This document shows, piece after piece, positions 3,036 through 60,069 of a stretch of 64,000 nt of DNA (its first letter is position 1; each line of letters opens with the position of its first letter). The notes below the pieces were generated by a model, which saw only the letters and a list, made by a program, of their open reading frames with translations, did no database searches and was not told the DNA's origin. A program made the translations under genes and the position numbers. The DNA comes from an uncultured Solirubrobacterales bacterium (GTDB taxonomy: Bacteria; Actinomycetota; Thermoleophilia; Solirubrobacterales; 70-9). The stretch is taken from NCBI GenBank assembly GCA_963707965.1, contig CAVPRR010000005.1:28255-92254 (forward strand), read 5' to 3'.

Positions 3036-3422
3036 ATGAACGACGAGAGTCTGATCAGCGGCTGGTGGGTCTTTGCCGGCGTGCTGCTCCTGATTGCAGG
3101 CGTTCTGAACATCGTCTACGGCATCGCCGCAATCGGCGATTCGAAGTTCTTCACTGAAAACGCGACCTACATCATCAGTGGTCTGCACACCTGGGGCTGG
3201 ATCCTCCTGATCGTCGGCGTGCTGGAGCTGGTGGCGGCATTCTCGCTGTTCTCGGGTGGAGAATTCGGCCGCTGGTTCGGCATCTTCGTCGCCTCGCTCA
3301 ATGCGATCGGTGCCCTGCTTTCCATTCCGGCATACCCCTTCTGGTCGCTGGCGATATTCGCCCTGGCGATCATCATCATCCACAAGCTGGCCGAGGGGCC
3401 GGAGGGAGCCTCGACCGCCTGA
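3036..3422 (+). CDS. small integral membrane protein (about four TM helices)
   Basis: ORF 2982..3422 with start taken at MNDESL. Repeated hydrophobic segments (WWVFAGVLLLIAGVL, WGWILLIVGVLELVAAF) resemble HdeD/DUF308-like proteins. Confidence 0.65.
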   Translation: MNDESLISGWWVFAGVLLLIAGVLNIVYGIAAIGDSKFFTENATYIISGLHTWGWILLIVGVLELVAAFSLFSGGEFGRWFGIFVASLNAIGALLSIPAYPFWSLAIFALAIIIIHKLAEGPEGASTA

Positions 3423-5139: not shown

Positions 5140-5213
5140 TCGGGGCGACTGGATTTGAACCAGCGACCGCTCGGCCCCCAGCCGAGTGCGCTACCAGACT
5201 GCGCCACGCCCCG
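5140..5213 (-). tRNA. tRNA-Pro (anticodon GGG)
   Basis: The reverse complement folds as a cloverleaf: acceptor CGGGGCG/CGCCCCG, D arm GCGC-AGTCTGGTA-GCGC, anticodon arm CTCGG-CTGGGGG-CCGAG, T arm GCTGG-TTCAAAT-CCAGT, discriminator A. CCA is not encoded. Confidence 0.9.
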
Positions 5214-5330
5214 TGGTTACCCGTATTCTGACGAATAGCTGCAGGCAACGCGCGATGCCCTGCGTGCGGAAGCCGAGCCGATAAGCACCGGCACCTCGCG
5301 TTGGGAACGTCTGTTCGGCTGGATAGCTTT

Positions 5331-5927
5331 ATGTCATGCGGACAGTGTGGTCGATGCAATCGGCTGAAGCCCATTGAAGAATTCGCCTGGCGGCGGAAAG
5401 CTCGGGGACAGCGGGATAATTACTGCCGACCCTGTCGCGCCGAGTACAAGCAGGAGCACTACGCGGCCAATCGACAGCGAGTACATCGATTCGGCAGGGC
5501 CGGCGCCGGCAGAGAGTAGTCGCCGAAGCGCGTCGCCTATCTGGTGGCCTATCTACGCGCCCACCCCTGTGTGGACTGCGGAGAGACCGATCCCGTCGTG
5601 CTGGAGTTCGACCACCTTCGGGACAAGAAGTTCAGCATCGGCAAGGGTTTTCGCGAGCGGGAATGGCAGAGTGTCCTCGACGAGATGGCGAAGTGCGAGG
5701 TCGTTTGTGCAAACTGTCATCGGCGCCGCACCGCTCAACGTGGCGGCTTCCTTCGACGCGGCGGTAGCTCAACGGTAGAGCCTCAGCCTTCCAAGCCGAT
5801 GACGCGAGTTCGATTCTCGTCCGCCGCTTCCGAAGTCGTCGATGCTCGCCGTGGGCTTCGAGCGCGTCGGCTGCCCGGCTCGATGACCGCGGACTACGCG
5901 GCGAGATCTGTGGGAATACCCCGATGA
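5331..5927 (+). pseudogene. HNH endonuclease-family gene interrupted by in-frame TAG (5517..5519); its downstream half reads on through tRNA-Gly
   Basis: ORFs 5301..5519 and 5544..5927 share one frame and are separated only by TAG. The N-half has a CGQCGRC...YCRPCRAEY zinc ribbon. The C-half has HPCVDCGETDPVVLEFDHL...CANCHRRRT (HNH). Confidence 0.6.
5758..5828 (+). tRNA. tRNA-Gly (anticodon TCC)
   Basis: Acceptor GCGGCGG/CCGCCGC, D arm GCTC-AACGGTA-GAGC, anticodon loop CTTCCAA, T arm GCGAG-TTCGATT-CTCGT, discriminator T. Confidence 0.9.
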
Positions 5928-5959
5928 ATCGGCCTGCCAAACGGCGCAGAATCGCGTTG

Positions 5960-6259
5960 ATGACGATTCGAGCCGTGATCGAGAAGCATGGGCACTTCGC
6001 GCACGGGGGCAACCCCGACGATGCTGCCGAGACCTGGGCGGAATCGGGCTTTGAGGGCCCCGAGGTCGAGGAGTGGCTGCTCGCCCGCTGCTACGACCCC
6101 AGCGCCGCCCGCGACCTGGCCGACGCCGGTGTGACCCCGGAGATGGCGAGGATGAAGACCAGCGCCGGTGCCGGTGACTACGTGGACACCGTCGGCTTCA
6201 AGGTCTCCGACGGCGACATCGAGGTCGAAGAGGCGCGCGATTTGGTCGGCGTCCACTGA
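5960..6259 (+). CDS. hypothetical acidic protein
   Basis: ORF 5924..6259 with start taken at MTIRAVIEKHG. I recognise no motif; the call rests on ORF length and GC-rich third codon positions. Confidence 0.4.
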   Translation: MTIRAVIEKHGHFAHGGNPDDAAETWAESGFEGPEVEEWLLARCYDPSAARDLADAGVTPEMARMKTSAGAGDYVDTVGFKVSDGDIEVEEARDLVGVH

Positions 6260-6432
6260 CGCGCAGCCGCTCCAGCTCAGCCCCCGGCGAAGCCGGCGGC
6301 GCCCCACGACGGGGCGCTGGCTTTGCCGACCTCGAGGACTCCAGCCCGGACCGTGCCAGAGACGGGCTCCCCGCCGACTGAGCTTTGACCTCGGCGATCG
6401 CGCTGGCGGCCTGTCAAGCGCGGTGCGAAGAA

Positions 6433-6504
6433 CGGGGGAGCCGGGATTCGAACCCGGATTCACGGTTTTGGAGACCGTGCGCATAACCGTTAACTCACTC
6501 CCCC
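6433..6504 (-). tRNA. tRNA-Trp (anticodon CCA)
   Basis: Reverse complement: acceptor GGGGGAG/CTCCCCC, anticodon arm ACGGT-CTCCAAA-ACCGT, T arm CCGGG-TTCGAAT-CCCGG, discriminator G. The D stem pairs poorly by hand folding, hence the reduced confidence. Confidence 0.7.
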
Positions 6505-6673
6505 AGGCGTCGAAGTTTATGGAGCGCCGGCGTCCGAAGGATTGGCAAACCTACAGTCGACCTCCCGCGCTGACCTCGCGAATATGACTATGCACGGTGT
6601 TTCTTCACGAATCTGTCGGCCTCCATACGAAGCGACCTCAAGCTACTTGACTCCTTCGTCGGGCCATGTCGGA

Positions 6674-6757
6674 TGCGGGCGGAGGGACTCGAACCCCCAA
6701 GCTCTTTCGAGCACCGGCACCTAAAGCCGGCGTGTTTCCCAATTTCACCACGCCCGC
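6674..6757 (-). tRNA. tRNA-Leu (anticodon TAG), type II with long variable arm
   Basis: Reverse complement: acceptor GCGGGCG/CGCCCGC, D arm GTG-AAATTGGGAAA-CAC, anticodon arm CCGGC-TTTAGGT-GCCGG, variable arm GCTC-GAAA-GAGC, T arm GGGGG-TTCGAGT-CCCTC, discriminator A. Confidence 0.9.
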
Positions 6758-6817
6758 GTGACCACCATCGTCACGGCTTAACGAGCGGCCAACGCCGCAT
6801 CGTCGCTCGTAGATTCT

Positions 6818-7360
6818 ATGATCGCAGCCGTGGCGATCGGAGAGGTGAGGCCGGGCTATGAACTCTGGCACCCCAATCGGGAGAAACCCGAGGTCATCGC
6901 GACCAAGTTCGTGATCGTCGCCCTGATGCTGGCAACGGCCGGCATCTCCGCCCTGATCACGATCACCGGATTCTCGCTGCTCACGGGCGGCACGGGCATG
7001 GGGATCGTCTGCTTCATCTTCGCCGGGCTCTACGCGCTCTTTGCCTACCGCGTCGCCCGCTGGAGCCGCGGCGTCCTGCCGGTCGCAGCGTCACTGTCGA
7101 TGATCCTGGCCATCTTCTGCGCCGCCGGCGCCGACAGCTGGTTCGCTCGCGACAAGGCCGGCTTTGCGGATGCGTCGATCCCGGTGCCCCTGATCGGGCT
7201 GCTGATCGTGATCTTGGTCCTCCTGCAGGTTCTGCTGATCGCGGCCGCCCTCTACGGCTTCACCCAGGACTGGCATGTCGAGGAGGAGCGCCCCATCGGC
7301 TCAGGCGAGGACTACGGCGCCGGCGCCCCGCAGGATCAGGGCTCCCCCCAGCCCGCGTAG
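6818..7360 (+). CDS. hypothetical integral membrane protein
   Basis: 180-aa ORF with an ATG start, four to five hydrophobic helices and an acidic/Pro-rich tail. No family recognised. Confidence 0.65.
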   Translation: MIAAVAIGEVRPGYELWHPNREKPEVIATKFVIVALMLATAGISALITITGFSLLTGGTGMGIVCFIFAGLYALFAYRVARWSRGVLPVAASLSMILAIFCAAGADSWFARDKAGFADASIPVPLIGLLIVILVLLQVLLIAAALYGFTQDWHVEEERPIGSGEDYGAGAPQDQGSPQPA

Positions 7361-7451
7361 TCACGATCCCGTTGCCTTTCCCGCCCTCCAGGCTGATGCG
7401 TCGGCCGCATGTGAATGACCAGCGGCTGGCTTCTAGACTTGATGAGCACCG

Positions 7452-7535
7452 GCGGCGGTGTCCAAACTGGCAAAGGAGGCGGTCTCAAAAGCCGCTGCCC
7501 GCAAGGGCTTGTGGGTTCGAGTCCCACCCGCCGCA
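7452..7535 (+). tRNA. tRNA-Leu (anticodon CAA), type II
   Basis: Acceptor GCGGCGG/CCGCCGC, D arm TCC-AAACTGGCAAA-GGA, anticodon arm GCGGT-CTCAAAA-GCCGC, long variable arm, T arm GTGGG-TTCGAGT-CCCAC, discriminator A. Confidence 0.9.
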
Positions 7536-7579
7536 TCAGGGAGCCCATTTCACGTGTCTGGGGACCGTTCTCGGAGCGG

Positions 7580-7625
7580 CCCGCAACACCGTTTCCACGT
7601 ATTGCATGGAAACGGTGTTTCGGGG
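7580..7625. repeat. 46-bp palindromic repeat, copy 1 (CCCGCAACACCGTTTCCACGTATTGCATGGAAACGGTGTTTCGGGG)
   Basis: Perfect 13-bp arms AACACCGTTTCCA/TGGAAACGGTGTT. Related copies lie at 39806..39851 and 40841..40886. This copy is 45 bp downstream of tRNA-Leu(CAA). Confidence 0.9.
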
Positions 7626-7632
7626 CCCCTGG

Positions 7633-14959: not shown

Positions 14960-15128
14960 CTAAATGGTTGATTCCACGGCCGCGTGTGACTGGGGGCGTG
15001 CGTGGCCAAGCAGATCGAGGACACAGGGCGCAGCCTTTGGTGGTGCCAAAGGTAAGCCCGAGGACGCAGAGATGCGCAGTGCCACGTGCGTCATCCAGGC
15101 GTGCGGGGTCGTGGAATCAACCATCTAG
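14960..15128. repeat. 169-bp intergenic element bounded by 19-bp inverted repeats (MITE-like or structured 5' leader)
   Basis: CTAAATGGTTGATTCCACG (14960..14978) pairs with CGTGGAATCAACCATCTAG (15110..15128), with 1 mismatch. Internal hairpins include CCTTTGG..CCAAAGG and GACGCA..TGCGTC. Confidence 0.6.
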
Positions 15129-17671: not shown

Positions 17672-18358
17672 ATGGATGAACCGATCCCCATCGTCGGCGG
17701 CACCGGCGCGCTCGGAGCCGGGCTGGCCCTGCGCTGGGCGAAGGCAGGCGCATCGGTTGTGATCGGCTCGCGCTCGGCGGAGCGCGCCGCGGCGGCTGCG
17801 GCGAAGCTTCGCGAAGCGGTCCCGGGCGCTGAGGCCGCGGGCCTGGTCAACGAGGAGGCGGCCAGGCGTGCGGAGGTTGTCTTCCTGACGGTCCCCTTCC
17901 GTGCCCAGTCGGAGAACCTCAACAACCTGCGAGGGGCGCTTCAACCGGGGCAGATTCTGGTCGACTGCACCGTCCCGCTCGCAGCGGCTGTGAGCGGCAA
18001 GGCGACCCGCTCGCTGGGCGTCTGGCAGGGCTCCGCAGCCCAGCAGGCGCAGGAGATGGTCCCGGACGGCGTCACGGTGATAGCGGCCCTGCACAGCGTG
18101 GGGGCACCGACTCTGGCCGACGCCGATTCCGAGCTGAACGAGGACGTGCCGGTCTGCGGCGACCGCAAGGCCGACAAGGCGCGCGTCGCGCGCCTCATCG
18201 AGCTCATTCCCGGACTGCGGGCCGTCAACGCAGGACCACTGGAGATGGCACGGATCGTCGAGCAGCTGACCCCCCTCCTGATCTCCGTCAACGGGCGCTA
18301 CAAGACCCACGCCGGAATCCGCATCACCGGGCTTCCCGATTCCGGCCATTGGGACTGA
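17672..18358 (+). CDS. npdG: NADPH-dependent F420 reductase
   Basis: IVGGTGALGAGLALRWAKAGASVVIGSR Rossmann N-terminus and full-length NpdG/Fno-like pattern. It sits beside the cofDCE genes. Confidence 0.8.
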   Translation: MDEPIPIVGGTGALGAGLALRWAKAGASVVIGSRSAERAAAAAAKLREAVPGAEAAGLVNEEAARRAEVVFLTVPFRAQSENLNNLRGALQPGQILVDCTVPLAAAVSGKATRSLGVWQGSAAQQAQEMVPDGVTVIAALHSVGAPTLADADSELNEDVPVCGDRKADKARVARLIELIPGLRAVNAGPLEMARIVEQLTPLLISVNGRYKTHAGIRITGLPDSGHWD

Positions 18359-18421
18359 ACGCCGGGCGGCGGGCATGAATCTCGCATTCTTGATTCGGCG
18401 ATCGAGAGTGGAGCGACTGCC

Positions 18422-19357
18422 ATGAAGATCGCCCTCCTCGCCGGCGGGACCGGCGGTGCCAAGCTCGGGGCCGGGATGCAGGAGGAGATCGGCGCCGAGC
18501 TGTCGGTGATCGCCAACACCGCCGACGACGTCGAGCTTCTCGGTGTCCACGTCTCGCCGGACCCTGATCTCGTCACCTACTGGTTGAGCGGCGAAATAGA
18601 CGCCGACCGCGGTTGGGGCATCCGAGACGACAGCTTCACCGTGTTCGAGAGGCTGTTGAAACTCGGTGCGCCGGGCTGGTTCAAGCTCTCCGACCGCGAC
18701 CTCGCGACATGTGTGTACCGCCGCGAGTTCCTCGCTGCGGGCGGGCGGCAGACCGACGCGCAGGCGCAGATCGCGCGTGCGCTCGGCGTTTCCGCCCGCG
18801 TGCTGCCGATGAGCGAGGCACGTGTGCACACCAGCGTGCTGACCGCCGCCGGTCGCCGCGGCCTGCAGGAGTACCTGATCGTCGACGGCGGTCGGCCCGA
18901 GGTGCACGGAGTCGAGCTGGAGGGCATCGCCGAGGCGAAGCCAACCCCCGAGGTGGCTGAGGCGCTGCGCGGAGCGGAGGCGATCGTGATCGGCCCCTCC
19001 AACCCGGTGATCAGCATCGGCCCGATCCTCGCCGTGCCAGGGATGAGGGAGGCGATCGCGGAGTCGAGCGCCCCGGTGATCGCGGTCAGCCCCTTCGTCG
19101 CCGGCCAGGTCGTGAAAGGCCCGACCGAGCGGTTCATGGCAGCCCTCGGCCGGCCGGCGACGGCGGCCGGGACCGCCTCGCTGTACGCGGGACTGATCGA
19201 CGCCATGGTCGTCGACGAGGGGGACCCCGATCCGCCCCCGGAGGAGATCCCGACCCTCGCGGCCCCAACCCTGATGGACGGGGCCGCCGCGCGAGTCCGG
19301 GTGGCACGCATCGTCCTCGACTACGCGGCCGACCTCGTCGCCTCCGGCCCTCGATGA
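18422..19357 (+). CDS. cofD: 2-phospho-L-lactate transferase (CofD/FbiA)
   Basis: MKIALLAGGTGGAKL N-terminus, VIANTADD, and a GPSNPVISIGPIL motif. Confidence 0.9.
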   Translation: MKIALLAGGTGGAKLGAGMQEEIGAELSVIANTADDVELLGVHVSPDPDLVTYWLSGEIDADRGWGIRDDSFTVFERLLKLGAPGWFKLSDRDLATCVYRREFLAAGGRQTDAQAQIARALGVSARVLPMSEARVHTSVLTAAGRRGLQEYLIVDGGRPEVHGVELEGIAEAKPTPEVAEALRGAEAIVIGPSNPVISIGPILAVPGMREAIAESSAPVIAVSPFVAGQVVKGPTERFMAALGRPATAAGTASLYAGLIDAMVVDEGDPDPPPEEIPTLAAPTLMDGAAARVRVARIVLDYAADLVASGPR

Positions 19358-19367
19358 CCGTCTTCGA

Positions 19368-20033
19368 TTGCGCCTCCGGTCTGGCCTCGGGTTGAAAGCG
19401 ACCGCCGTACTCCCAATGAAGCGCTTCGGCGCCGCGAAGAGGCGACTTGCGGCGGGCATGGAGGACAGGGGGCGCGAGGCGCTCGTCGCTGCGATGCTCG
19501 AGGACGTGCTGGAGGCAATCGGCGCGGCGCGGTCGATCGAGGCCACGATCGTCGTCAGCAGCGAGCCCCGGGCCGCCGAGCGCGCAGCGGCAGCAGGTAG
19601 CGAGGTCCTTCCCGACCCGGCGGGCGGCGGCCACTCGGAGGCCACACTGGCCGGGATCGCGCGCGCCGAGGAGCTCGGCGCCACCTGCGTCGTGCTCCTT
19701 CCCGGCGACTGCCCACTGCTCGACCCACGCGAGCTGGACAGCCTGCTGACCGGCGTTCCGGCGAATTACGTCGCCGTCGTTCCAGACAGGCACGGCACCG
19801 GGACCAACGCCCTCGTCCTCTCGCCCCCCCGGGCAATCAGGCCCGCCTTCGGCGAGGGCAGCCGCGACCGCCACGTCGCCGCGGCCCGCGAGGCCGGCAT
19901 CCCCTTTGGCGTCGAAGCGCTGACCTCGCTGGCCCTCGACCTCGATACTCCCGCCGACCTCATTGCCCTGACCCGCGAGCTGCAGGCACAGCCGGGCCGC
20001 GCCCGGCGCACCGCGAAGGCGCTGGGGCTGTGA
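19368..20033 (+). CDS. cofC: phospholactate/phosphoenolpyruvate guanylyltransferase (CofC/FbiD)
   Basis: AVLPMKRFGAAKRRL N-terminal motif, LLPGDCPLL, GTGTNAL. TTG start at 19368 (alternative TTG at 19392). The stop overlaps the cofE GTG start. Confidence 0.85.
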   Translation: MRLRSGLGLKATAVLPMKRFGAAKRRLAAGMEDRGREALVAAMLEDVLEAIGAARSIEATIVVSSEPRAAERAAAAGSEVLPDPAGGGHSEATLAGIARAEELGATCVVLLPGDCPLLDPRELDSLLTGVPANYVAVVPDRHGTGTNALVLSPPRAIRPAFGEGSRDRHVAAAREAGIPFGVEALTSLALDLDTPADLIALTRELQAQPGRARRTAKALGL

Positions 20034-20821
20034 ACACGCAGCAGCCCATCGGGAGCGAGTCGGGGGAGCTGAGCGTCCTTCCGGTCACCGGCCTGCCCGA
20101 GTTCGTCGAGGACATGTCCGTGGGGACGGAGATCGCCACCCACGCAAGGTTGCTCGATGGCGATGTCGTCGTGGTCTCCCAGAAGATCGTCTCGAAGGCA
20201 GAGGGGCGTGTCCGCCGCCTCACCTCGGTCCTGCCCGGCGGAGAGGCGCGACGCCTCGCCGCGGCCCTCGGCAAAGAGCCGGCGCTGGTCGAGCTGATTC
20301 TCGCCGAGAGCCGCGAGGTGCTGCGCGCCGAGCACAGCGTCCTGATCACCGAGACGCACCACGGCTTCGTCTGCGCCAACGCGGGGATCGACAACTCCAA
20401 TCTCCCCGACCCCGACACGGTTTCGCTGCTGCCGGAGGACCCCGATGCCTCCGCGCGGCGGATCCGCGCGGAGATTCGCGCTGCAACCGGCAGGGCCGTG
20501 GCGACCATCGTCTCCGACAGCTTCGGGCGCGCCTGGCGCCTTGGCCAGACAGAGGTCGCTATCGGCTGCGCGGGAATCGCTCCGCTCAGCGACTGGAGGG
20601 GCCGCAGTGACGCCGCTGGCCGCACGCTGGAGGCGACCCTGATCGCGGTCGCCGACGAGGCGGCAGCCGCCGCCGACCTGGTTCGCGACAAGGACAGTGG
20701 AATCCCCGTTGCGATCGTCCGTGGCCTCCAGCGCTTCGTCAGCCACGGCGCCGACCCCGGAGACGACGGCCCCGGCGCCGCGGCCCTGCGCCGCCCCCGC
20801 GACGAGGACCTCTTCCGGTAA
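20030..20821 (+). CDS. cofE: coenzyme F420-0:L-glutamate ligase (CofE domain only)
   Basis: VVVSQKIVSKAEGR and HGFVCANAGIDNSN motifs. At 263 aa there is no C-terminal nitroreductase-like domain. Confidence 0.9.
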   Translation: MNTQQPIGSESGELSVLPVTGLPEFVEDMSVGTEIATHARLLDGDVVVVSQKIVSKAEGRVRRLTSVLPGGEARRLAAALGKEPALVELILAESREVLRAEHSVLITETHHGFVCANAGIDNSNLPDPDTVSLLPEDPDASARRIRAEIRAATGRAVATIVSDSFGRAWRLGQTEVAIGCAGIAPLSDWRGRSDAAGRTLEATLIAVADEAAAAADLVRDKDSGIPVAIVRGLQRFVSHGADPGDDGPGAAALRRPRDEDLFR

Positions 20822-21955: not shown

Positions 21956-24221
21956 CTACCCGGCGAGCACCGGCCGCTGCGCCGGGTACGTGTCGACGAT
22001 CTCGTAGAGCGTCGTGCGCTGGGCCGGTTCCCGGCCTCCCGCGCGGGCAGCCTCGATCAGTTGCTCCGGCTCCAGCCGCACCCCGTGCTGCGAGCCGGCC
22101 ATGCGCGAGATGTTCTCCTCCATCAGCGTGCCGCCGAGGTCGTTGACCCCCCAGCGCAGCGCCTCGGTGGCCGCCTCGAGCCCCATCTTCACCCAGCTCG
22201 CCTGCAGGTTCGGGATGGTCCTGCCCAGTGCCAGCCGGAAGGCGGCGGTGTGCTTCAGGTTCTCCCCGGCCGAGATCTCCTCGATGCCGTGCGTGCGACC
22301 CAGCATCGTGTTGAAGGGGATGAAACTGAGTGGCACGAACTCGGTGATCCCGCCCGTCCGTTCCTGCAGGGCCCGAACCACCCGCATGTGGCGGGCCAGC
22401 TCGCGCGGTTCCTCGATGTGCCCGAACATCACGGTCGAGGTCGAGCGGAGGCCGGCCCGGTGCGAGGCTTCGATGATCTCCACCCAGCGCTCGACCGGCA
22501 GCTTGTTGGGGGAGATCCGCTGGCGCACCCCGTCGTCCAGAACCTCCGCTGCGGTTCCGGGTGTGGATCCGAGCCCGCACTCGATCAGGTACTCGAACAC
22601 AGCGTCGGGCTCCCTACCCGAGCGCTCGCACATGTAATGGATCTCCATCGGCGAGTAGGCGTGAAGGTGCAGCTGCGGGGCCACCTCCTGCGCGAGCTGC
22701 AGCCACCTGCCGTACTTCTCCAGCGTAAGGTCGGGATGGATTCCACCCTGCATGCAGATCTCGGTCGCCCCGAATTCGACCGCATCGCGCACCCGATCGG
22801 CGAAGTCGTCCTCGGAGACCTCGTAGGCATCGGGTGAGCGGCGCCCCTGTCCGAACCCGCAGAAGGCGCAGCCGACCACGCAGATGTTCGTGAAGTTGAT
22901 GTTCCGGTTGACGACGAACGTGGCCCGGTCCCCGGCAAGCTCGGCCCGCAGCTCGTCGGCGGCGGCACGCATCTGCTCGACGACCTCCGGGCGCGTCTCG
23001 GCGAACAGCGCGGTCAGTTCGTCCTCGCTCAGCTCCTCCCCCCGGCGCCCCCTCGCGATCGCCCGCTCGGCGAGGCTCGAATCGATCCGCTCGTCCCGGC
23101 GCCGCCCCGACCCGCGCCGCGGGATGAAGCTCCAGTACTTCAGCTTGATCACGTCGAGGACCCCCTGCTCCATCCACTCGGGGCTCATGTACTGCGGGTA
23201 GACACAGAGCCTCTCCGTCAGCGCATACCCCTTCGGCGCCAGCCCCTTCCGCACCTCGTGCGGGCTGGGAAATGCGTGCTCGGGCGAGATGTGATCCCCG
23301 TTGGCCGAGAGCCCGCCCAAATCGGTTGCCCCGGCCTCGACCAGCTCGGGCCAGGAGCCGGACAGGTTTGGCGGAACCTGTATCCCCACGTCGGGCATCA
23401 GGCGCCGGCACTCGGAAATCAGCCGCTTGATGTCCCGCACGCCGATCGAGCTGGCCCACTCCGGCATGAGCAGCGGGGAGTCCCCCGCGGGGGACTCCCC
23501 GCTCTGTTGCTCCGGCGGGGGCTTCCCCGTTACCCGTCCAGCGAAGGTGTGAAGCCTGGTCGGCGATATCGGCGACCTCCCGCCCGTAGTACCGCGGGTG
23601 CGGAACGAAGTTCTGGAGGATGACCTCCTGGATATGCCCATAGCGGCTGTGGAGCTCGGCGATGGCTTCCAGCGATTCGACCTGCTCCTGCTCCGTCTCG
23701 CCGATCCCGACGAGGATCCCCGTCGTGAACGGGATCTTCAGCGCGCCGGCGGCCTCGATCGTCGCCAGCCGCTGAGTCGGGTGCTTGGTAGGCGAGCCGG
23801 CGTGGACGGTGTCCATCAAGCGCTCGGCGATCGACTCCAGCATCAAGCCCTGAGAGGCGGTGACCTCCCGGAGACGTGCCAGGTCGTCAGAGCTGAGGAC
23901 GCCGATGTTCGTATGCGGCAGGATCCCGCGCTCCAGCGCCCGTTCGCAAGCCCAGACCACGTAGGAGGTGAAGTCGCCGTGGCCCCACTCGGCGAGCTTG
24001 GCAGCGACGATCGGGTTGACCTCGGGCCGCTCGCCGGTGAGCACCAGGAGCTCCTTGGCATTACGGCGCACAGCCTCCTCCAGGCGAGCTTCGACTTCCT
24101 CGGGGGCGTAGATATGAGCCTGGCGGGTCGCGAATGCGCAGTACTTGCAGTAGCACTGGCAGGTGCGGGAAAGCGAGAGCGTGTAGTTCCGCGAGAAGGT
24201 GACCCGGCGCACGAGGCTCAA
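21956..24221 (-). pseudogene. fbiC: FO synthase FbiC (fused CofG/CofH radical-SAM enzyme) with a one-nucleotide frame break inside the CofG half
   Basis: The CofG N-part (CQCYCKYC cluster ... ILQNFVPHPRYYG) is in the frame of ORF 22614..24221. The rest of CofG (MPDVGIQVPPNL...) and all of CofH (CVVGCAFC cluster) are in the frame of ORF 21956..23641. The switch lies around 23440..23560. Confidence 0.7.
23472..23503. repeat. perfect 32-bp palindrome AGCGGGGAGTCCCCCGCGGGGGACTCCCCGCT inside fbiC
   Basis: Read directly from the sequence; the two 16-nt halves are exact reverse complements. It is located at the fbiC frame junction. Confidence 0.95.
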
Positions 24222-49072: not shown

Positions 49073-50923
49073 ATGCAGGCCGATTCGGCGCTTGACGCTC
49101 CGGGCACCAAGGGCCCGATCAACGCTCCCCACACTCGCCTCGTCCGTCGCAGCGGTCACCTGGCGCCGATCGCCCTCTGCGCCGGTGCGGGGTTGTTCCT
49201 CTGTTCCCTCGCCAACGCGCTCTCACGGGAGACGCTGGACCCGTCCTCGCTGATCTACTGGGCGGGCATCCTGCTGATCGCCCTGCCGATCTTCTACCGG
49301 CTCACCTCACGCGATGCCTCGCCGGGAGAGCGGCTTGCGCTCGTTTGCTTGCTCGGCCTCTCCCTCTACGGAGTCAAGCTGGTGCGCGACGCCCCGATCT
49401 TTACCTTCTCCGACGAGCTGGTGCACGCCTTCAACGCGGACCAGATCTCCACCCACCATCACCTCTTCCGCTTCAACCCGATCCTCCCGGTCACCCCGAA
49501 CTACCCCGGCCTGGAGGGCGCCGCCTCTGCGCTGATGACACTCACCGGGATTTCGAGCTACGGCGCTGGGATCGTCGTCGTGGGCGCCGCCCGCCTCACG
49601 CTGGTAATCGGACTCTTCCTGCTCTTCGCGCGGATCAGCGGCTCGGCGCGGACCGCAGGGCTGGGGGTGGCGATCTACGCCGGCAACTTCAACTTCCTCT
49701 TCTGGGGCGCCCAGTTCTCCTACGAGTCGCTGTCGCTTCCCCTGTTCATCGTCGTGCTGATGGCTATCGCCGAGCGGGGCGCCTCCTCGCAGGAGTGGGC
49801 GCGGAACTGGACGGTGCCGATCGTGCTGGGGATCGCTGCGATCGTCGTCACCCACCACCTCACCTCATACGCGACCGTGGTCTTCCTGGCCACGCTGGCT
49901 CTCGCGTACCGGCTCGTGCGCAGGGATTGGGCCTGGCCCAATCCATGGCGCTTCGCCGCCCTTGCCGCCGTGCTCGCGACCGTCTGGCTGCTGCTTGTCG
50001 CCACCTCGACCTTCGGCTACATCTCGCCGGTGCTCGGCGAAGCGTTCGAAGCGATCTTCCACACCGCCTCCGGCGAGGCGCCGCCGCGAGCGCTCTTCGA
50101 GGGCAAGGGCTCGAACATCCCGGCCACCCCGTTCCTCGCCCGCGCGGTGGCGCTGCTCGCGGTGGCGCTGCTCGCCGTCGCACTGCCGTTCGGGCTGCTG
50201 CGCATCCGGCGTCGCTACCGCTCGCAGCCCTTCGCCCTGGTCTTCGCGGTCGCCGCGCTCGCCTTCTTCGCGACGCTGCTCCTGCGATTGGCGCCCGCCG
50301 CCTGGGAGACCGGCAACCGCGCCGGCGAGTTCCTCTTCGTCGGCCTTGCCTTCGTCGTCGCCTGCGCGGGGCTGCAAAACTGGCGGCCGGGCAATCGCCC
50401 CTGGATCGGCCGCGTTTCGCTCACCGCCGCCCTCGGCGTGGTGCTGGTGGGCGGCGTGATCGCCGGCTGGCCCTGGGACCTCCAGCTAGCATCGCCGCTG
50501 CGCGCGAGCGCCGGCGGCAACACGATCTCCTCGGCGCCCCTCGCGGTCGCCGAATGGGCGAAGCGCAACATCCCCGAAGACCAGCGCTTCGCAGCCGCCG
50601 CCGCCGATGCCCGCATGCTGATGGTGCCCGGCGAGCACGTTGCGCTGGCCGGCAAGACGCCCGATGTCCAGGACCTGCTTGAAGAGCCCGCCCTGTCCGG
50701 ATGGGAGCTGCCGCTGCTGCGCCGCGAAGACCTGCGCTACGTCGTCACCGACCGGCGCGAAATCAGCTCGGACGCGACCAGGGGGTACTCGTTCTCGATC
50801 CGGGGCGACGAAGAGGAGTTGCTGCCGCTGGCCGCGGTGACGAAGTTCGCGGAAATCCCCGGGGCGATGCGAATCTACTCGAGCGGCAACATCTCGGTCT
50901 ACGACCTGGGCGAAGGCCGGTGA
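49073..50923 (+). CDS. large polytopic membrane protein, candidate GT-C-fold glycosyltransferase
   Basis: 616 aa with more than 10 TM helices, an acidic FSDELVH motif in the first extracytoplasmic loop and a C-terminal soluble domain. It follows a Ppm1-like GT2. Confidence 0.6.
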   Translation: MQADSALDAPGTKGPINAPHTRLVRRSGHLAPIALCAGAGLFLCSLANALSRETLDPSSLIYWAGILLIALPIFYRLTSRDASPGERLALVCLLGLSLYGVKLVRDAPIFTFSDELVHAFNADQISTHHHLFRFNPILPVTPNYPGLEGAASALMTLTGISSYGAGIVVVGAARLTLVIGLFLLFARISGSARTAGLGVAIYAGNFNFLFWGAQFSYESLSLPLFIVVLMAIAERGASSQEWARNWTVPIVLGIAAIVVTHHLTSYATVVFLATLALAYRLVRRDWAWPNPWRFAALAAVLATVWLLLVATSTFGYISPVLGEAFEAIFHTASGEAPPRALFEGKGSNIPATPFLARAVALLAVALLAVALPFGLLRIRRRYRSQPFALVFAVAALAFFATLLLRLAPAAWETGNRAGEFLFVGLAFVVACAGLQNWRPGNRPWIGRVSLTAALGVVLVGGVIAGWPWDLQLASPLRASAGGNTISSAPLAVAEWAKRNIPEDQRFAAAAADARMLMVPGEHVALAGKTPDVQDLLEEPALSGWELPLLRREDLRYVVTDRREISSDATRGYSFSIRGDEEELLPLAAVTKFAEIPGAMRIYSSGNISVYDLGEGR

Positions 50924-51786
50924 GGGGCCACAGCGACCTGCGCGCCGTCGCCGGCCTGGCGCTGCTGTGCGCGGGCCTGGCGCTGCTGATCCCTCTCGAC
51001 TGGGTGGCACTCGCCTTCGCGGCGCCCCTCGCCCTGTTGCTGCCGGGCTACGCGATCACCGCCGCAGCCTTCGCCCGCCGCCGGCTCGAGTGGCCGCACT
51101 TCCTGCTGCTCAGCCTCGGGCTCAGCCTGGCGACGCTGGCCCTGGGCAGCCTCGTGCTCGACTACGTCCCGGGCGGTGTCCGCGCGCTCTCCTGGGCGAT
51201 CCTGCTGCTGCTCGTCGTGCTCAACGGCTGCCGAGTTGCGGCGCTGCACCGCAAGGGCCCGGCACCATTCCGCTGGCCGCAGCTGCGGCTGCGGCTGCGA
51301 GCCTGGGAAGCCGGGCTGCTGCTGGGCGGGTTCGCAGCCGCCGTCGCCGCCATTGTCCTCGCCTCCGCGACGGTGCCAGCCAGGAACGCCCTTGGTTACA
51401 CGCAGCTCTGGATCCTTCCCAAGGCCGGTTCCAATGGCAGCGAAGCCCGGATCGGCGTCGGCAGCCAGGAGCAAAGCCCGGTCGATTTCGACCTGCGGAT
51501 CAGGGTCGGCGGCCGCGGTAGTGCCCCGGCTAGGCTCGCCGAGCGCCGAAGCGCCACCCACGGTCGCAGACAGGAACTGGGCCTGGCCACTGCGCTGGGC
51601 GCCGAAATCGTCCGCCGCAGCTTCACCCTGAGGCCGGGCGAAACCCAGGTGGTCACGGTCGGTCCCCCCGCCACGCCCGCGGGCACGACGGTCCCAGTCG
51701 TCGCAACGCTGTTGCGTCACAATCGCCCCTACGGCGTCTATCGCCGGGTCAAGGGCCGACTCGTTGCGCCGGAGCGACGGCAATGA
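50920..51786 (+). CDS. DUF1616-like membrane protein
   Basis: The GTG start overlaps the upstream stop (GTGA). N-terminal TM helices, then a beta-rich extracytoplasmic part. The family call is tentative. Confidence 0.55.
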   Translation: MRGHSDLRAVAGLALLCAGLALLIPLDWVALAFAAPLALLLPGYAITAAAFARRRLEWPHFLLLSLGLSLATLALGSLVLDYVPGGVRALSWAILLLLVVLNGCRVAALHRKGPAPFRWPQLRLRLRAWEAGLLLGGFAAAVAAIVLASATVPARNALGYTQLWILPKAGSNGSEARIGVGSQEQSPVDFDLRIRVGGRGSAPARLAERRSATHGRRQELGLATALGAEIVRRSFTLRPGETQVVTVGPPATPAGTTVPVVATLLRHNRPYGVYRRVKGRLVAPERRQ

Positions 51787-57569: not shown

Positions 57570-59106
57570 GTCGCTGCCGGAGGCGGAGCGCAACGACCTG
57601 CTGCGGCAAGTCGACTGGCGCTTCCTGCTGGACAACACCGGCCAGCCGCGAGCGCTCGACCTCAGCCGCGGGCGGCGACTCTCCCGCGCCATCGATCTGA
57701 TCGCCGAGCGAGCGCCGGATGCACCGGGCGCCGCCGATCTCGTCGTGCTCGGCTACCCCACCCGCCGGGGCCTGACCGCTGCCGCGGAGGTGGCGGCGCC
57801 GGGGGCGGCAATCGTTTGCGAGTGGCGCGTGCCGCGGTTCGCCGGTATGCAGCGGGCGCGACGACGGCTGGAGCGTGCCGGCCTTGCATCTGTGTGCGTC
57901 TACTGGCCGGGCCCGCTCCCCCACCGCCCGCCGCAGTTCTGGCTGCCGCTGGGGTCCCCTGCCGCAAGGGCCCGGCTCTTCTCCCTGCGCCCCGCGCGCT
58001 CGCCCGCCCAGGCCGCGCTGCGAGCCCTCTGGCACACCATCGCCAACCTCGGCCTGCTCGCCCCCGCTGTCGCGATCGGTTACGCCGCGGGTGGCGAGGG
58101 GGACAGCGGGCGCGGCAACGGCCACCGCGACGTCGCCAAATCCGGCCAGACCGCGTCGATGGCAGGCGGGTCGCCGCTGCTTCTGACCGGCGGCGCCAGG
58201 TCGATCAACAAGGTCGTGGCCCTGGGAGACTCGGCCGAGGGCACTCCCGTCGCGGTCAAGTTTGCCCGCGTGCCCGAGGCGGATGCCGCGCTCGAGCGAG
58301 AGGCGGAGGTGCTTCGCCAGGTGCAGCGCGAGCACCCGACGGCGCCGGGCGTACCGCGCCTGCTCGATCAGGGCCGGCGCGCGGGCCGGCGCGCGATCGC
58401 CGAGAGCGCCGTCAACGGCCGGCCGCTGATCGACTCCCTGAGCGAGGAGACGTTTCCCAGGCTCGCGTCGCAAGTGAGCGAATGGCTGGTGGAACTGGCC
58501 CGGGGCGGCGACCGGCAGGCCCCGGCAGATTGGTGGCCGCGCCTGGTCGCCGAACCGCTGCGGCGCTTCGAGGAAAGCTTCGCGCCAGTCCTCGCCCCCG
58601 ACACCGCCCGGCGGGCACGACAGCTTCTGGAGGACTTGGGGGAGCTGCCGCAAACCTGCGAGCACCGTGACTGCTCTCCGTGGAACATCGTGCTGAGTGC
58701 GGGCGGTGAGCCGGCCCTGCTCGACTGGGAGTCCGCCGAGCCGCACGGGCTGCCAGGCCTGGACCTCGCCTACTTCCTCGCAAATGCCGCCTTCGTCCTG
58801 GACGGGGCTCTGGAGTCGGGAGATTCTGCGGCAAGCCTTGCCAATCTGCTCGACCCCAGCAACCCGCGCGGCACGGTTGCGACCAGTTGCATTGGCGAGT
58901 ACTGCGCGGGGCTCGGCCTCGATCCCGGCGCGTTCCCCCGCCTGCGCCTGCTGGCCTGGATCGTCCACTCGCAATCCGACTATCGCCACATCTCGATGGA
59001 GAGCGCCGGGCAGCCGCCGCCCGAGGCGCTGCGGGGGAGCGTCTTCCTGGGGCTGATCGAGCAGGAGCTCCGCCTGAGCGAAGGGGACGGCCGTGACCTC
59101 CCCTGA
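57550..59106 (+). CDS. two-domain protein: N-terminal Rossmann/methyltransferase-like region plus C-terminal APH/choline-kinase-like phosphotransferase
   Basis: Kinase-like motifs VAVKFARV (Lys), catalytic loop CEHRDCSPWNIVL and LLDWESAE. The N-domain lacks a clear SAM GxGxG motif. Confidence 0.7.
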   Translation: MGATLPESLPEAERNDLLRQVDWRFLLDNTGQPRALDLSRGRRLSRAIDLIAERAPDAPGAADLVVLGYPTRRGLTAAAEVAAPGAAIVCEWRVPRFAGMQRARRRLERAGLASVCVYWPGPLPHRPPQFWLPLGSPAARARLFSLRPARSPAQAALRALWHTIANLGLLAPAVAIGYAAGGEGDSGRGNGHRDVAKSGQTASMAGGSPLLLTGGARSINKVVALGDSAEGTPVAVKFARVPEADAALEREAEVLRQVQREHPTAPGVPRLLDQGRRAGRRAIAESAVNGRPLIDSLSEETFPRLASQVSEWLVELARGGDRQAPADWWPRLVAEPLRRFEESFAPVLAPDTARRARQLLEDLGELPQTCEHRDCSPWNIVLSAGGEPALLDWESAEPHGLPGLDLAYFLANAAFVLDGALESGDSAASLANLLDPSNPRGTVATSCIGEYCAGLGLDPGAFPRLRLLAWIVHSQSDYRHISMESAGQPPPEALRGSVFLGLIEQELRLSEGDGRDLP

Positions 59107-60069
59107 GCTGAGCGTCGTGGTTCCGACCCACAACCGGCGTGAGCTGGTGCGCCGTTGCGTAGCCGCGCTACTCAGCCAAACGCTGACCCCCCAGAGCTTC
59201 GAGCTGGTGGTCGTTGACGATGGCTCCAGCGACGGCACCGCCGAGATGCTCGCGAGCCTCGAGACACCGTTCCGCCTCACCGTGCTGCAGCCTGGGCCGA
59301 TCGGCCAGTCGGCCGCCCGCAACGCCGGGATCGAGGCCGCCCAAGGAGAGGTTTGCGTTCTGCTCGACGACGACGTGATCCCCTCTCCTGAGCATGGTCG
59401 CCGAGCACCTCGCCGCGCATCGGGGCGCGGGGCGACGGATCGGGATCGGCTCGCTCTCACAGGTCGCGCCCAGCGACGGCGACTGGTACGCGCGCGCCTT
59501 CGCCCGCGGCTGGGCCGCCCACTACCAGCGGCTGGAACACAAGCAGGCTAGCTGGGCCGACTGCTACGGCGGCAACATCTCCGCGCCTCGCGCGGCGCTG
59601 TTGAAGGTCGGCGGCTTCGCCACCGACGTCGCGGTGAGCAAGGACATCGAGCTCGGCTTCCGCCTCTGCGAGGCCGGTTGCGCGCCCATCTACCTCCCCC
59701 GCGCCCACGCCGTCCACGACGACCAGAAGCCACGCGACCCACCTGCTCCGCGACGTGTGGCTTCACGGCACCGGCTACGTCGAGCTGAGTCACAGGCACC
59801 CGGCGATGTTCCCCAAGCTCCTCGGCTGGTTTGGCGCCGCGACGCGCCGGGAGATCGCCCTGCGCAGGGCGCTGATCGCCCTGCGCGTGCCGCCCTCGAT
59901 ACTGGCCGCTGCCGGCCGCCTGCTCCTCGGCGAGGGCCGCCAGGACGCGTGGTATGAGTTCGTCTGGAAGCTCGCCTTCTGGCGCTCGGTGCGCGCCAGC
60001 GTGAGCAGGGCGCGATGGGCGGAGCTGACCTCGACCACAGCCGGGACAGCGGCACGCGCCGGTCGATGA
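59093..60069 (+). pseudogene. GT2 glycosyltransferase paralog broken by two frameshifts
   Basis: ORFs 59093..59551, 59394..59957 and 59755..60069 together align collinearly with residues 1 to ~320 of the next gene. Frame switches occur near 59390 (after DDDVIPSPE) and 59730 (after VHDDQK). Confidence 0.7.

Follow-up and report, generated by a model that had tools for sequence, protein, structure and literature searches.

In the 64,000-nt stretch of DNA analysed here (hereafter the window; contig CAVPRR010000005.1, positions 28,255 to 92,254), which derives from an uncultured Solirubrobacterales bacterium, the fused FO synthase gene fbiC is read in two frames that meet within a GC-rich hairpin. 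Comparison with related loci shows that a family of GC-rich palindromic elements of ~69 nt is represented at a constant position of fbiC in the majority of clade members. The element in fbiC is old, lying at the same codon in most clade orthologs, and the frameshift arises from a one-base length change inside the window's copy. We give a probability of roughly 50% to the reading, drawn from sequence comparison, that this change is a real hairpin-templated mutation which may have produced a recent inactivating allele of fbiC.

The position of the frame break was established from the ORFs (open reading frames) of the minus strand, on which fbiC lies. The ORF at 22614..24221 (frame 0) is correct through ...RWTGNGEAPAGAT, with ACA at 23507-23505 as its final codon, and the ORF at 21956..23641 (frame displaced +1) is correct from GGG GAG at 23500 onwards (...GESPAGDSPLLMPEWASS...), supplying the remainder of CofG and all of CofH. 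Pfam analysis identified one Radical_SAM domain (PF04055) in the N-terminal ORF, and Radical_SAM together with CofH_C (PF19288) in the C-terminal ORF; the domains of FbiC are thus present. However, the single ORF of approximately 730-790 aa that is characteristic of FbiC (731-790 aa among orthologs) is replaced in the window by two frames broken at 23505/23500. When proteins from two related loci (L084 and L085) were used as tblastn queries, fbiC was likewise divided, into frame -3 (24212-23433) and frame -1 (23530-21986). An ORF of ~750 aa is regained by deleting any one base within 23537-23468.

23505..24221, minus strand: N-terminal part of fbiC (CofG radical-SAM half), in the correct frame and ending ...RWTGNGEAPAGAT
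21956..23500, minus strand: C-terminal part of fbiC (rest of CofG and all of CofH), running from GESPAGDSPLLMPEWASS as far as the stop codon in the +1-displaced frame
23472..23503, no strand assigned: perfect palindrome, made up of the loop-proximal AGC GGGGAG TCCCCCG and the 3' arm CGGGGGACTCCCCGCT

A preliminary description of the window had placed a perfect 32-bp palindrome at this frame change and had proposed that the deletion of a single nucleotide would restore an ORF of about 750 aa. These observations were confirmed. Direct reading of positions 23472-23503 gives AGCGGGGAGTCCCCCG|CGGGGGACTCCCCGCT, two 16-nt halves with a spacer of 0, which fold as DNA with a minimum free energy (MFE) of -18.4 kcal/mol (z -6.0). 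No comparable palindrome arose in 100 dinucleotide shuffles of the window, and by our own calculation only ~1e-4 such palindromes are expected by chance per 64 kb at the window's GC content of 69%. No second copy was found in the 64-kb window, even with three mismatches allowed, and a search of 185,579 species genomes with the 22-nt core of the palindrome returned just three unrelated single matches; the 32-nt palindrome was therefore rejected as a repeated unit. Nor is the palindrome plus 2 nt, which the preliminary description had removed as a block, a natural unit, since orthologs retain the peptide of the palindrome region (for example EAPAGASPPLMP in L085).

To place the palindrome in context, we compared 80 orthologous loci from metagenomes together with loci L084-L088, which were obtained by exact-protein look-up. 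The top orthologs are 82-88% identical, are named FO synthase or CofH in their sources and come from Solirubrobacterales-type metagenome-assembled genomes (MAGs) and soil metagenomes. Both halves of the window's fbiC share 79-87% identity with orthologs by tblastn. Across 120 orthologs the protein is near-invariant except between 'RW' and 'LPxWAS' in the CofG half, where the flanking anchors are separated by 72-129 residues. The peptides of this variable segment resemble translated inverted repeats and, viewed as DNA, the segment forms a long near-perfect hairpin in ~85% of the fetched loci, with stems of up to 25-35 bp, MFE values of -50 to -125 kcal/mol and z-scores of -4 to -10. Of 78 distinct ortholog inserts, 66 reached an ungapped stem score of at least 12, with stems as long as 30 bp; just 49 of the 1526 stem positions were mismatched. 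The insert is missing from seven short-form orthologs, which are in effect empty sites, whether ancestral or produced by deletion. All of the ~200 orthologs examined are in frame across the element. In an AlphaFold2 model the insert is a coil with a predicted local distance difference test score (pLDDT) below 50, lying between helices 213-228 and 257-270, in what is a poor model overall (mean pLDDT 54). Two loci carry a pair of elements in tandem in the fbiC loop (L028 3188-3337 and L045 3188-3346), the second being reversed, in inserts of 49-56 aa.

A hairpin scan covering 562 kb of loci plus the window returned 64 matches in the fbiC segment and 46 elsewhere. Many of the hairpins outside fbiC possess a common apex, either GGAGC-AACAG(AT/CC/C)GGGGAG-GCTCC or GGAC-AACAGCGGGGAG-GGTCC, in either orientation. 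Alignment of 25 elements from fbiC, cofE and intergenic sites (alignment A1) defined a unit of 69 nt in which two 28-nt arms enclose a 13-nt loop, CAACAG-N(1-2)-GGGGAGG. Six loop bases are invariant (C28, A29, A30, A32, G38 and G42). In the arms, 27 of 28 pairs vary on both sides and 94% of cells are nevertheless paired; none of 500 shuffles attained the observed pairing, and partners slid out of register paired at 44-57%. A covariance model (R1), built from 25 elements at loci other than the window, yielded 137 matches in the loci. Those in fbiC mostly begin at locus coordinate 3188, with a few at 3185 or 3197, and their lengths (57, 63, 66, 69, 75, 81, 102, 105 and 123 nt) are all multiples of 3. 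There, the element is translated in frame as a peptide rich in Gly, Pro, Ser, Ala and Asp, and the elements lack stop codons in most of their six frames. Since the element is old, in frame and read through in orthologs, it is not a recent insertion that broke fbiC.

Approximately 23 copies lie outside fbiC in the loci examined. The clearest is in cofE of L088, which contains an exact insertion of 69 nt (23 codons) relative to the cofE genes of L084, L085, L086 and the window, the last of which has no element in the cofE alignment. In many relatives the cofE element is in frame, measures 65-77 nt and codes for peptides such as EGPGMGVAGPSPLLSADPHPRPL; besides L088 (6657-6725), the orthologous site is filled in 12 further loci (L009, L024, L033, L036, L055, L063, L065, L066, L070, L075, L081 and L082). 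The 69-nt insertion in L088 takes in its outer arms, and we therefore rejected the idea that host flanks are the source of the outer arms. Further copies seem to lie between genes, judging from the called genes in L086 and from a weak coding signal elsewhere. Single contigs of relatives may hold several copies: L088 has one in fbiC and one in cofE, L086 and L008 each have one in fbiC and one intergenic, and L036 has four. This distribution suggests that the family is mobile. Against mobility, neither recent identical copies nor a transposase was seen, and the clean cofE insertion of L088 is flanked by no direct repeat or target-site duplication, although no search was aimed at a transposase partner. 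Neither the IMG/VR viral contigs nor the PLSDB plasmids yielded the element. A search for its alternative-frame peptides in other proteins gave 0 matches, which is uninformative given how short and low in complexity these peptides are.

Two other kinds of hairpin were observed in the related loci. The first comprises longer hairpins of 115-155 nt (L036 495-612 and 5833-5947; L046 6519-6637; L086 7133-7269; L067 90-244 and 395-544) with an inner TTTTTCG...CGAAAAA or other cores, some of which resemble the long 'FFA' class of fbiC inserts; these probably represent related or nested element families. The second is a conserved hairpin, (C)GCCGATGGGCC...GGCCCATCGGC(G), located apparently downstream of fbiC (L007 4483-4531, L025 4753-4803 and L088 5242-5294). 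In L088 it begins right after the called fbiC stop codon, and it is probably a terminator unrelated to the element family.

With its filters switched off, R1 found one significant match in the 64-kb window (37.7 bits, E 3.7e-6), spanning model positions 1-69 with one inserted base. The window holds a single copy. The sequence of the copy is CGGGTAACGGGGAAGCCCCCGCCGGAGC | AACAGAGCGGGGAG | TCCCCCGCGGGGGACTCCCCGCTGCTCA, and folded as DNA it has an MFE of -27.9 kcal/mol (z -5.2).

23467..23536, minus strand: degenerate 70-nt element copy (5' arm, loop, 3' arm), matched by R1 and one base longer than in-frame 69-nt members
23515..23529, minus strand: original 5' arm CGGGGAAGCCCCCGC, pairing at 13 of 15 positions with the 3' arm GCGGGGGACTCCCCG by direct reading and covariance-model alignment
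23495..23509, minus strand: loop motif CAACAG-AGC-GGGGAG, with the spacer AGC at 23503-23501, placed from A1, the motif lists and the L084/L085 codons

The preliminary description had offered, as one of its explanations, a palindromic element inserted into a coding region in the manner of the Rickettsia palindromic elements (RPEs). The kind of element was correctly anticipated; its details were not, as the unit is the 70 nt at 23467-23536 rather than the 32-nt palindrome, and its presence in fbiC is old rather than a recent insertion. In length, too, the window copy stands apart: orthologs all carry an in-frame element (57-123 nt in fbiC, 69 nt in cofE), whereas that of the window is 70 nt. 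Membership of the window copy in the 'EQQ-frame' class of orthologs, which is characterised by paired 1-nt deletions in both arms, was considered and rejected.

Where does the additional base reside? The spacer between AACAG and GGGGAG is 3 nt in the window and 1-2 nt in every other member of the family. Codon by codon, the sole length difference between the window and L084/L085 is ACA GAT GGG GAG against ACA GAGC GGG GAG. Another proposal of the preliminary description, an indel within the C5/G5 runs, does not agree with this alignment, in which the extra base falls in the loop spacer and outside such runs. Removal of G 23502 yields ...AGATDGESPAGDSPLLMPEW... (AGATDGESPAG), which matches the ATDGEAP of relatives, and reduces the palindrome from 32 to 28 nt, placing the extra base among those that extend the palindrome. 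Indeed, AGC joined to GGGGAG-TCCCCCG is reverse-complementary, without a mismatch, to the 3' arm plus GCT, and this is what creates the 32-nt palindrome. By our own count, the equivalent segments of L085 are complementary at 11 of 16 positions, against 16 of 16 in the window with the additional base included. The nearest relative, L005/P0001 (89% identity), retains a decayed hairpin remnant (z -0.35) and no palindrome. Thus, the perfect palindrome is probably derived in the window lineage, with the differences from these relatives all being in the direction of complementarity.

A single mutational event accommodates these observations most economically. In the proposed mechanism, the 3' arm of the window lineage would have mispaired with a similar loop-proximal segment (GGGGAG plus the inner stem), and a hairpin-templated event, either a quasi-palindrome template switch or arm conversion, would then have rewritten this segment so that it complements the 3' arm exactly. 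Sixteen nucleotides would have been copied in place of 15, with the spacer changing from AT or AC to AGC, such that one event could yield both the perfect 32-nt palindrome and the +1 frameshift. The predicted outcome is a very recent null, or strongly hypomorphic, allele of fbiC in a genome whose other F420 genes are intact. The location of the extra base in a non-homopolymer loop spacer, together with the extension of the palindrome, favours such a hairpin-templated mutation.

Several considerations weigh against it. The allele is represented by a single assembly; exact-protein look-ups recovered no other sample of this species, and the best metagenome relative over the junction is 82% identical. 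With no other lesion in fbiC and with the remaining pathway genes intact, a true null could only be very recent. GC-rich perfect hairpins are classic sequencing trouble spots, and the window includes a second gene, the GT2 gene at 59081-60066, whose frame changes twice. The extra base was itself placed by alignment in a hypervariable segment, and the covariance model puts the insertion 7 nt further. A symmetric undercall, whereby true C6/G6 runs are recorded as C5/G5, would also regain the frame while leaving the palindrome perfect. Finally, 21 database ORFs from other assemblies (P0121-P0141; all bearing an ENA source tag and three an NCBI tag as well) match the out-of-frame translation of fbiC; of the eight whose sequences were read, most change frame within fbiC, several of them more than once, and assemblies of this clade thus carry indel errors.

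The most serious alternative, which we hold to be credible though short of an even chance, accepts the same element but attributes the extra base to a sequencing or assembly artefact at the GC-rich hairpin, fbiC being truly in frame (69 or 72 nt) and functional. The suggested forms of such an error are a base inserted beside the G4 run or paired undercalls of C6/G6 runs; a version with C6/G6 or outer G5/C5 runs regains the frame with a perfect 34-nt palindrome. The absence of any other lesion in fbiC, whose two halves remain as close to orthologs as noted above, is consistent with an artefact, as are the intact cofC, cofD, cofE and npdG, the GT2 gene with one of its two changes at a C4 run, and the frame-scrambled fbiC ORFs in other public assemblies of the clade. 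Conversely, the 22 other genes compared over ~30 kb are free of frameshifts, the length difference from L084/L085 (GAT to GAGC) is at a non-homopolymer position, and an error that happens to extend the palindrome by 2-3 pairs is improbable, being one or two of ~40 distinct frame-restoring possibilities. Moreover, both GT2 lesions fall in one gene, which is more suggestive of a pseudogene than of scattered errors.

We then considered whether the hairpins evolve as RNA or as DNA. Among the mismatches in ortholog stems, 10 are G·T, 18 are A·C and the remaining 21 are of other kinds, which shows no wobble bias. The arms differ between copies and between orthologs, yet are ~94-97% complementary. 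The loop is found in reversed orientation at the same site, in fbiC of L051, L052 and L033 and in cofE of L088 and L065, and a class of orthologs including L086 and L088 carries complementary one-base deletions in both arms. A search of Rfam identified no family above threshold, the sub-threshold matches being to generic miRNA-hairpin models only. On the grounds that there is no G·U excess, that both loop orientations occur and that no Rfam family matches, an RNA-structure reading was rejected. The lack of a G·T excess at high arm complementarity, and the loops in both orientations, instead indicate homogenisation of the arms at the DNA level, with inversion of the spacer between inverted repeats. 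Template switching between imperfect inverted repeats is known to homogenise arms, invert spacers and cause frameshifts (PMC8604942, PMC7202029). As arm homogenisation and spacer inversion are both established products of such switching, we interpret the family as palindromic DNA elements with concerted evolution of the arms.

This bears on a further alternative, which we judge unlikely, in which the hairpins are selected functional structures in F420-pathway genes and the window copy is an aberrant one. Function could be exerted through RNA (regulation, mRNA stability or translational pausing) or through DNA, as a site of protein binding or recombination. The strong conservation of the loop, with its six invariant bases in A1, is compatible with function, as are the recurrent mismatches at stem positions 22/48 and 23/47 and the presence of the element clade-wide at the fbiC site and at a second site in cofE. 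The apparent link to F420 genes may, however, be an artefact of sampling, as only the neighbourhood of fbiC was examined. In addition to the absence of a G·U excess among the stem mismatches and of an Rfam family, the loop occurs in both orientations relative to the host gene, some copies appear to be intergenic, and the short-form orthologs and the closest relatives of the window manage without a hairpin.

It is very improbable that programmed recoding at the hairpin produces full-length FbiC from the 70-nt allele. Two routes could be envisaged: a +1 slip of tRNA-Pro on GUC-CCC-C (23493-23488), or take-off/landing hopping across the hairpin between two GAG codons. The CCC-C motif is known to be prone to +1 slippage, and the mitochondria of Magnusiomyces bypass GC-rich hairpin inserts. 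The shift required here is indeed +1, a CCC-C quadruplet is present in the 5' half of the palindrome, and two matching GAG codons, separated by 43 nt, are in suitable frames. Comparative support is absent, however: with all ~200 orthologs in frame, there is no conserved recoding signal and no sign that the lineage decodes an out-of-frame element. Furthermore, the site contains no stop or rare 'hungry' codon, and the hairpin precedes or overlies the slip site instead of following it. That the region is ordinary coding sequence whose symmetry is coincidental, the reading that the preliminary description named as its refutation, has a negligible chance of being correct, as nothing beyond the high GC content speaks for it and the palindrome, unmatched in 100 shuffles, sits inside a hairpin family with massive covariation.

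We compared the family with known systems. RPEs, reportedly described by Ogata et al. in 2000, are short multi-copy hairpin repeats of 100-150 nt. They insert in frame in conserved genes, with most of their reading frames open; the peptide that they contribute falls in a variable loop, and their inheritance is at orthologous sites. The present family resembles them as a hairpin-forming repeat tolerated in frame within a variable protein loop. It differs in its hosts, which are free-living, high-GC, Solirubrobacterales-like actinobacteria of another phylum, and in the size of the element (~69 nt as opposed to 100-150). Further differences are the conservation of loop and inner stem alongside copy-specific, co-evolving outer arms, the flipping of loop orientation at orthologous sites and the out-of-frame window copy. 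By analogy, this is best regarded as an RPE-like family of coding palindromic elements, for which the closest known kind would be the in-frame palindromic repeat.

Miniature inverted-repeat transposable elements (MITEs) and repetitive extragenic palindromic (REP) sequences, including intragenic examples (PMC3184786, PMC2229807, PMC2759123), are also among the closest known systems, and the intragenic small mobile sequences of enterobacteria are of the in-frame palindromic repeat kind (PMC2759123). MITEs differ from the present family as regards target-site duplication, none being found at the clean cofE insertion here (a transposase partner having been outside our search), and copies of MITE and REP sequences share the sequence of their arms, whereas here the arms vary. 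Quasi-palindrome template switching (PMC7202029, PMC8604942, PMC3820800) offers a parallel in process: the apparent changes in the window all raise arm complementarity, a clustered multi-nucleotide change includes an indel, spacer inversions occur among orthologs and the outcome is a frameshift. That process has been shown experimentally in E. coli and yeast, whereas here it is deduced from relatives 86-89% identical. A more distant analogue is provided by the coding palindromes of Nematomorpha mitochondria (PMC6649704), which are likewise long near-perfect inverted repeats in translated genes with both arms coding. Their arms encode conserved parts of proteins in an organelle genome, whereas in the present family they code for a low-complexity loop that is dispensable, and the repeats are multi-copy with a common loop motif. 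No description of such elements in Solirubrobacterales or Thermoleophilia was found in the literature, the coverage of which was incomplete, so that this amounts to absence of evidence only.

A broader interpretation, which we consider doubtful, is that the family is an active class of coding-compatible 69-nt palindromic element whose loop and inner stem are recognised by a dedicated DNA-processing activity. Continual conversion within the element would maintain perfect arms, and flipping of the loop would be switch-like; fbiC, cofE and probably many more enzymes would have been colonised across an actinobacterial order, and the +1 change in the window would be real, with the loss of FO synthesis. 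Should the family prove to be what the comparisons suggest, in-frame 'selfish' palindromes would not be limited to reduced intracellular genomes such as those of Rickettsia but would extend to large, free-living, high-GC soil bacteria, where they would reside within highly conserved radical-SAM and ligase enzymes. The dozens of orthologous copies, which include empty sites, decayed, tandem and loop-flipped copies and one out-of-frame copy, constitute a natural series on arm homogenisation, spacer inversion and the creation and destruction of coding sequence. For the annotation of Solirubrobacterales MAGs, the hairpins are a predictable source of frameshifts, real or artefactual, and of 'hypervariable loops'; such frameshifts should not be taken as pathway loss without read-level checks. 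Indel-ridden assemblies of the clade are common in public data (P0121-P0141).

The order NMT1-MIP-fbiC-ADH-cofE-cofC-cofD-npdG is common to the window, L084 and L085, and fbiC therein lies in an F420 neighbourhood. In agreement with the preliminary description, which had called cofC, cofD, cofE and npdG intact, each of these genes gave one full-length high-scoring segment pair (HSP) by tblastn:

17678..20818, plus strand: npdG, cofD, cofC and cofE, intact, with single full-length tblastn HSPs and no element in the cofE alignment
17678-18352, plus strand: npdG, single full-length HSP
18422-19336, plus strand: cofD, single full-length HSP
19395-20030, plus strand: cofC, single full-length HSP
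20060-20818, plus strand: cofE, single full-length HSP

Across ~30 kb of syntenic sequence, fbiC is the sole broken gene; the 22 others (6.8-37 kb) gave a single HSP each in tblastn with L084/L085. Rampant indel errors near fbiC were accordingly rejected, these 22 neighbours being unbroken. A frame plot of third-codon-position GC (GC3) over the window raised flags on fbiC and the GT2 gene alone, and the DUF1616 gene at 50683-51786 is intact.

The GT2 gene (family-2 glycosyltransferase; 59081-60066, plus strand) is read in three successive frames, and each change requires the removal of one base, as in fbiC. The first change lies near 59375-59390 (ATCCCCTCTCC, which with one C less becomes DDDVIPLLSMVAEH) and the second near 59715-59730 (CAGAAGCCACGCG); one of the two is located at a C4 run. 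Either the gene is a genuine pseudogene or the two lesions are local errors in the consensus.

Elsewhere in the window, five tRNA genes are present in 5140-7535 (5140-5213 minus, 5758-5828 plus, 6433-6504 minus, 6674-6757 minus and 7452-7535 plus). The cluster is followed at 7575-7629 by a terminator-like hairpin with an 18-bp stem. An inverted repeat at 14960-15128 consists of the 19-nt arms CTAAATGGTTGATTCCACG and CGTGGAATCAACCATCTAG separated by 131 nt, and these arms are unusually AT-rich for the genome.

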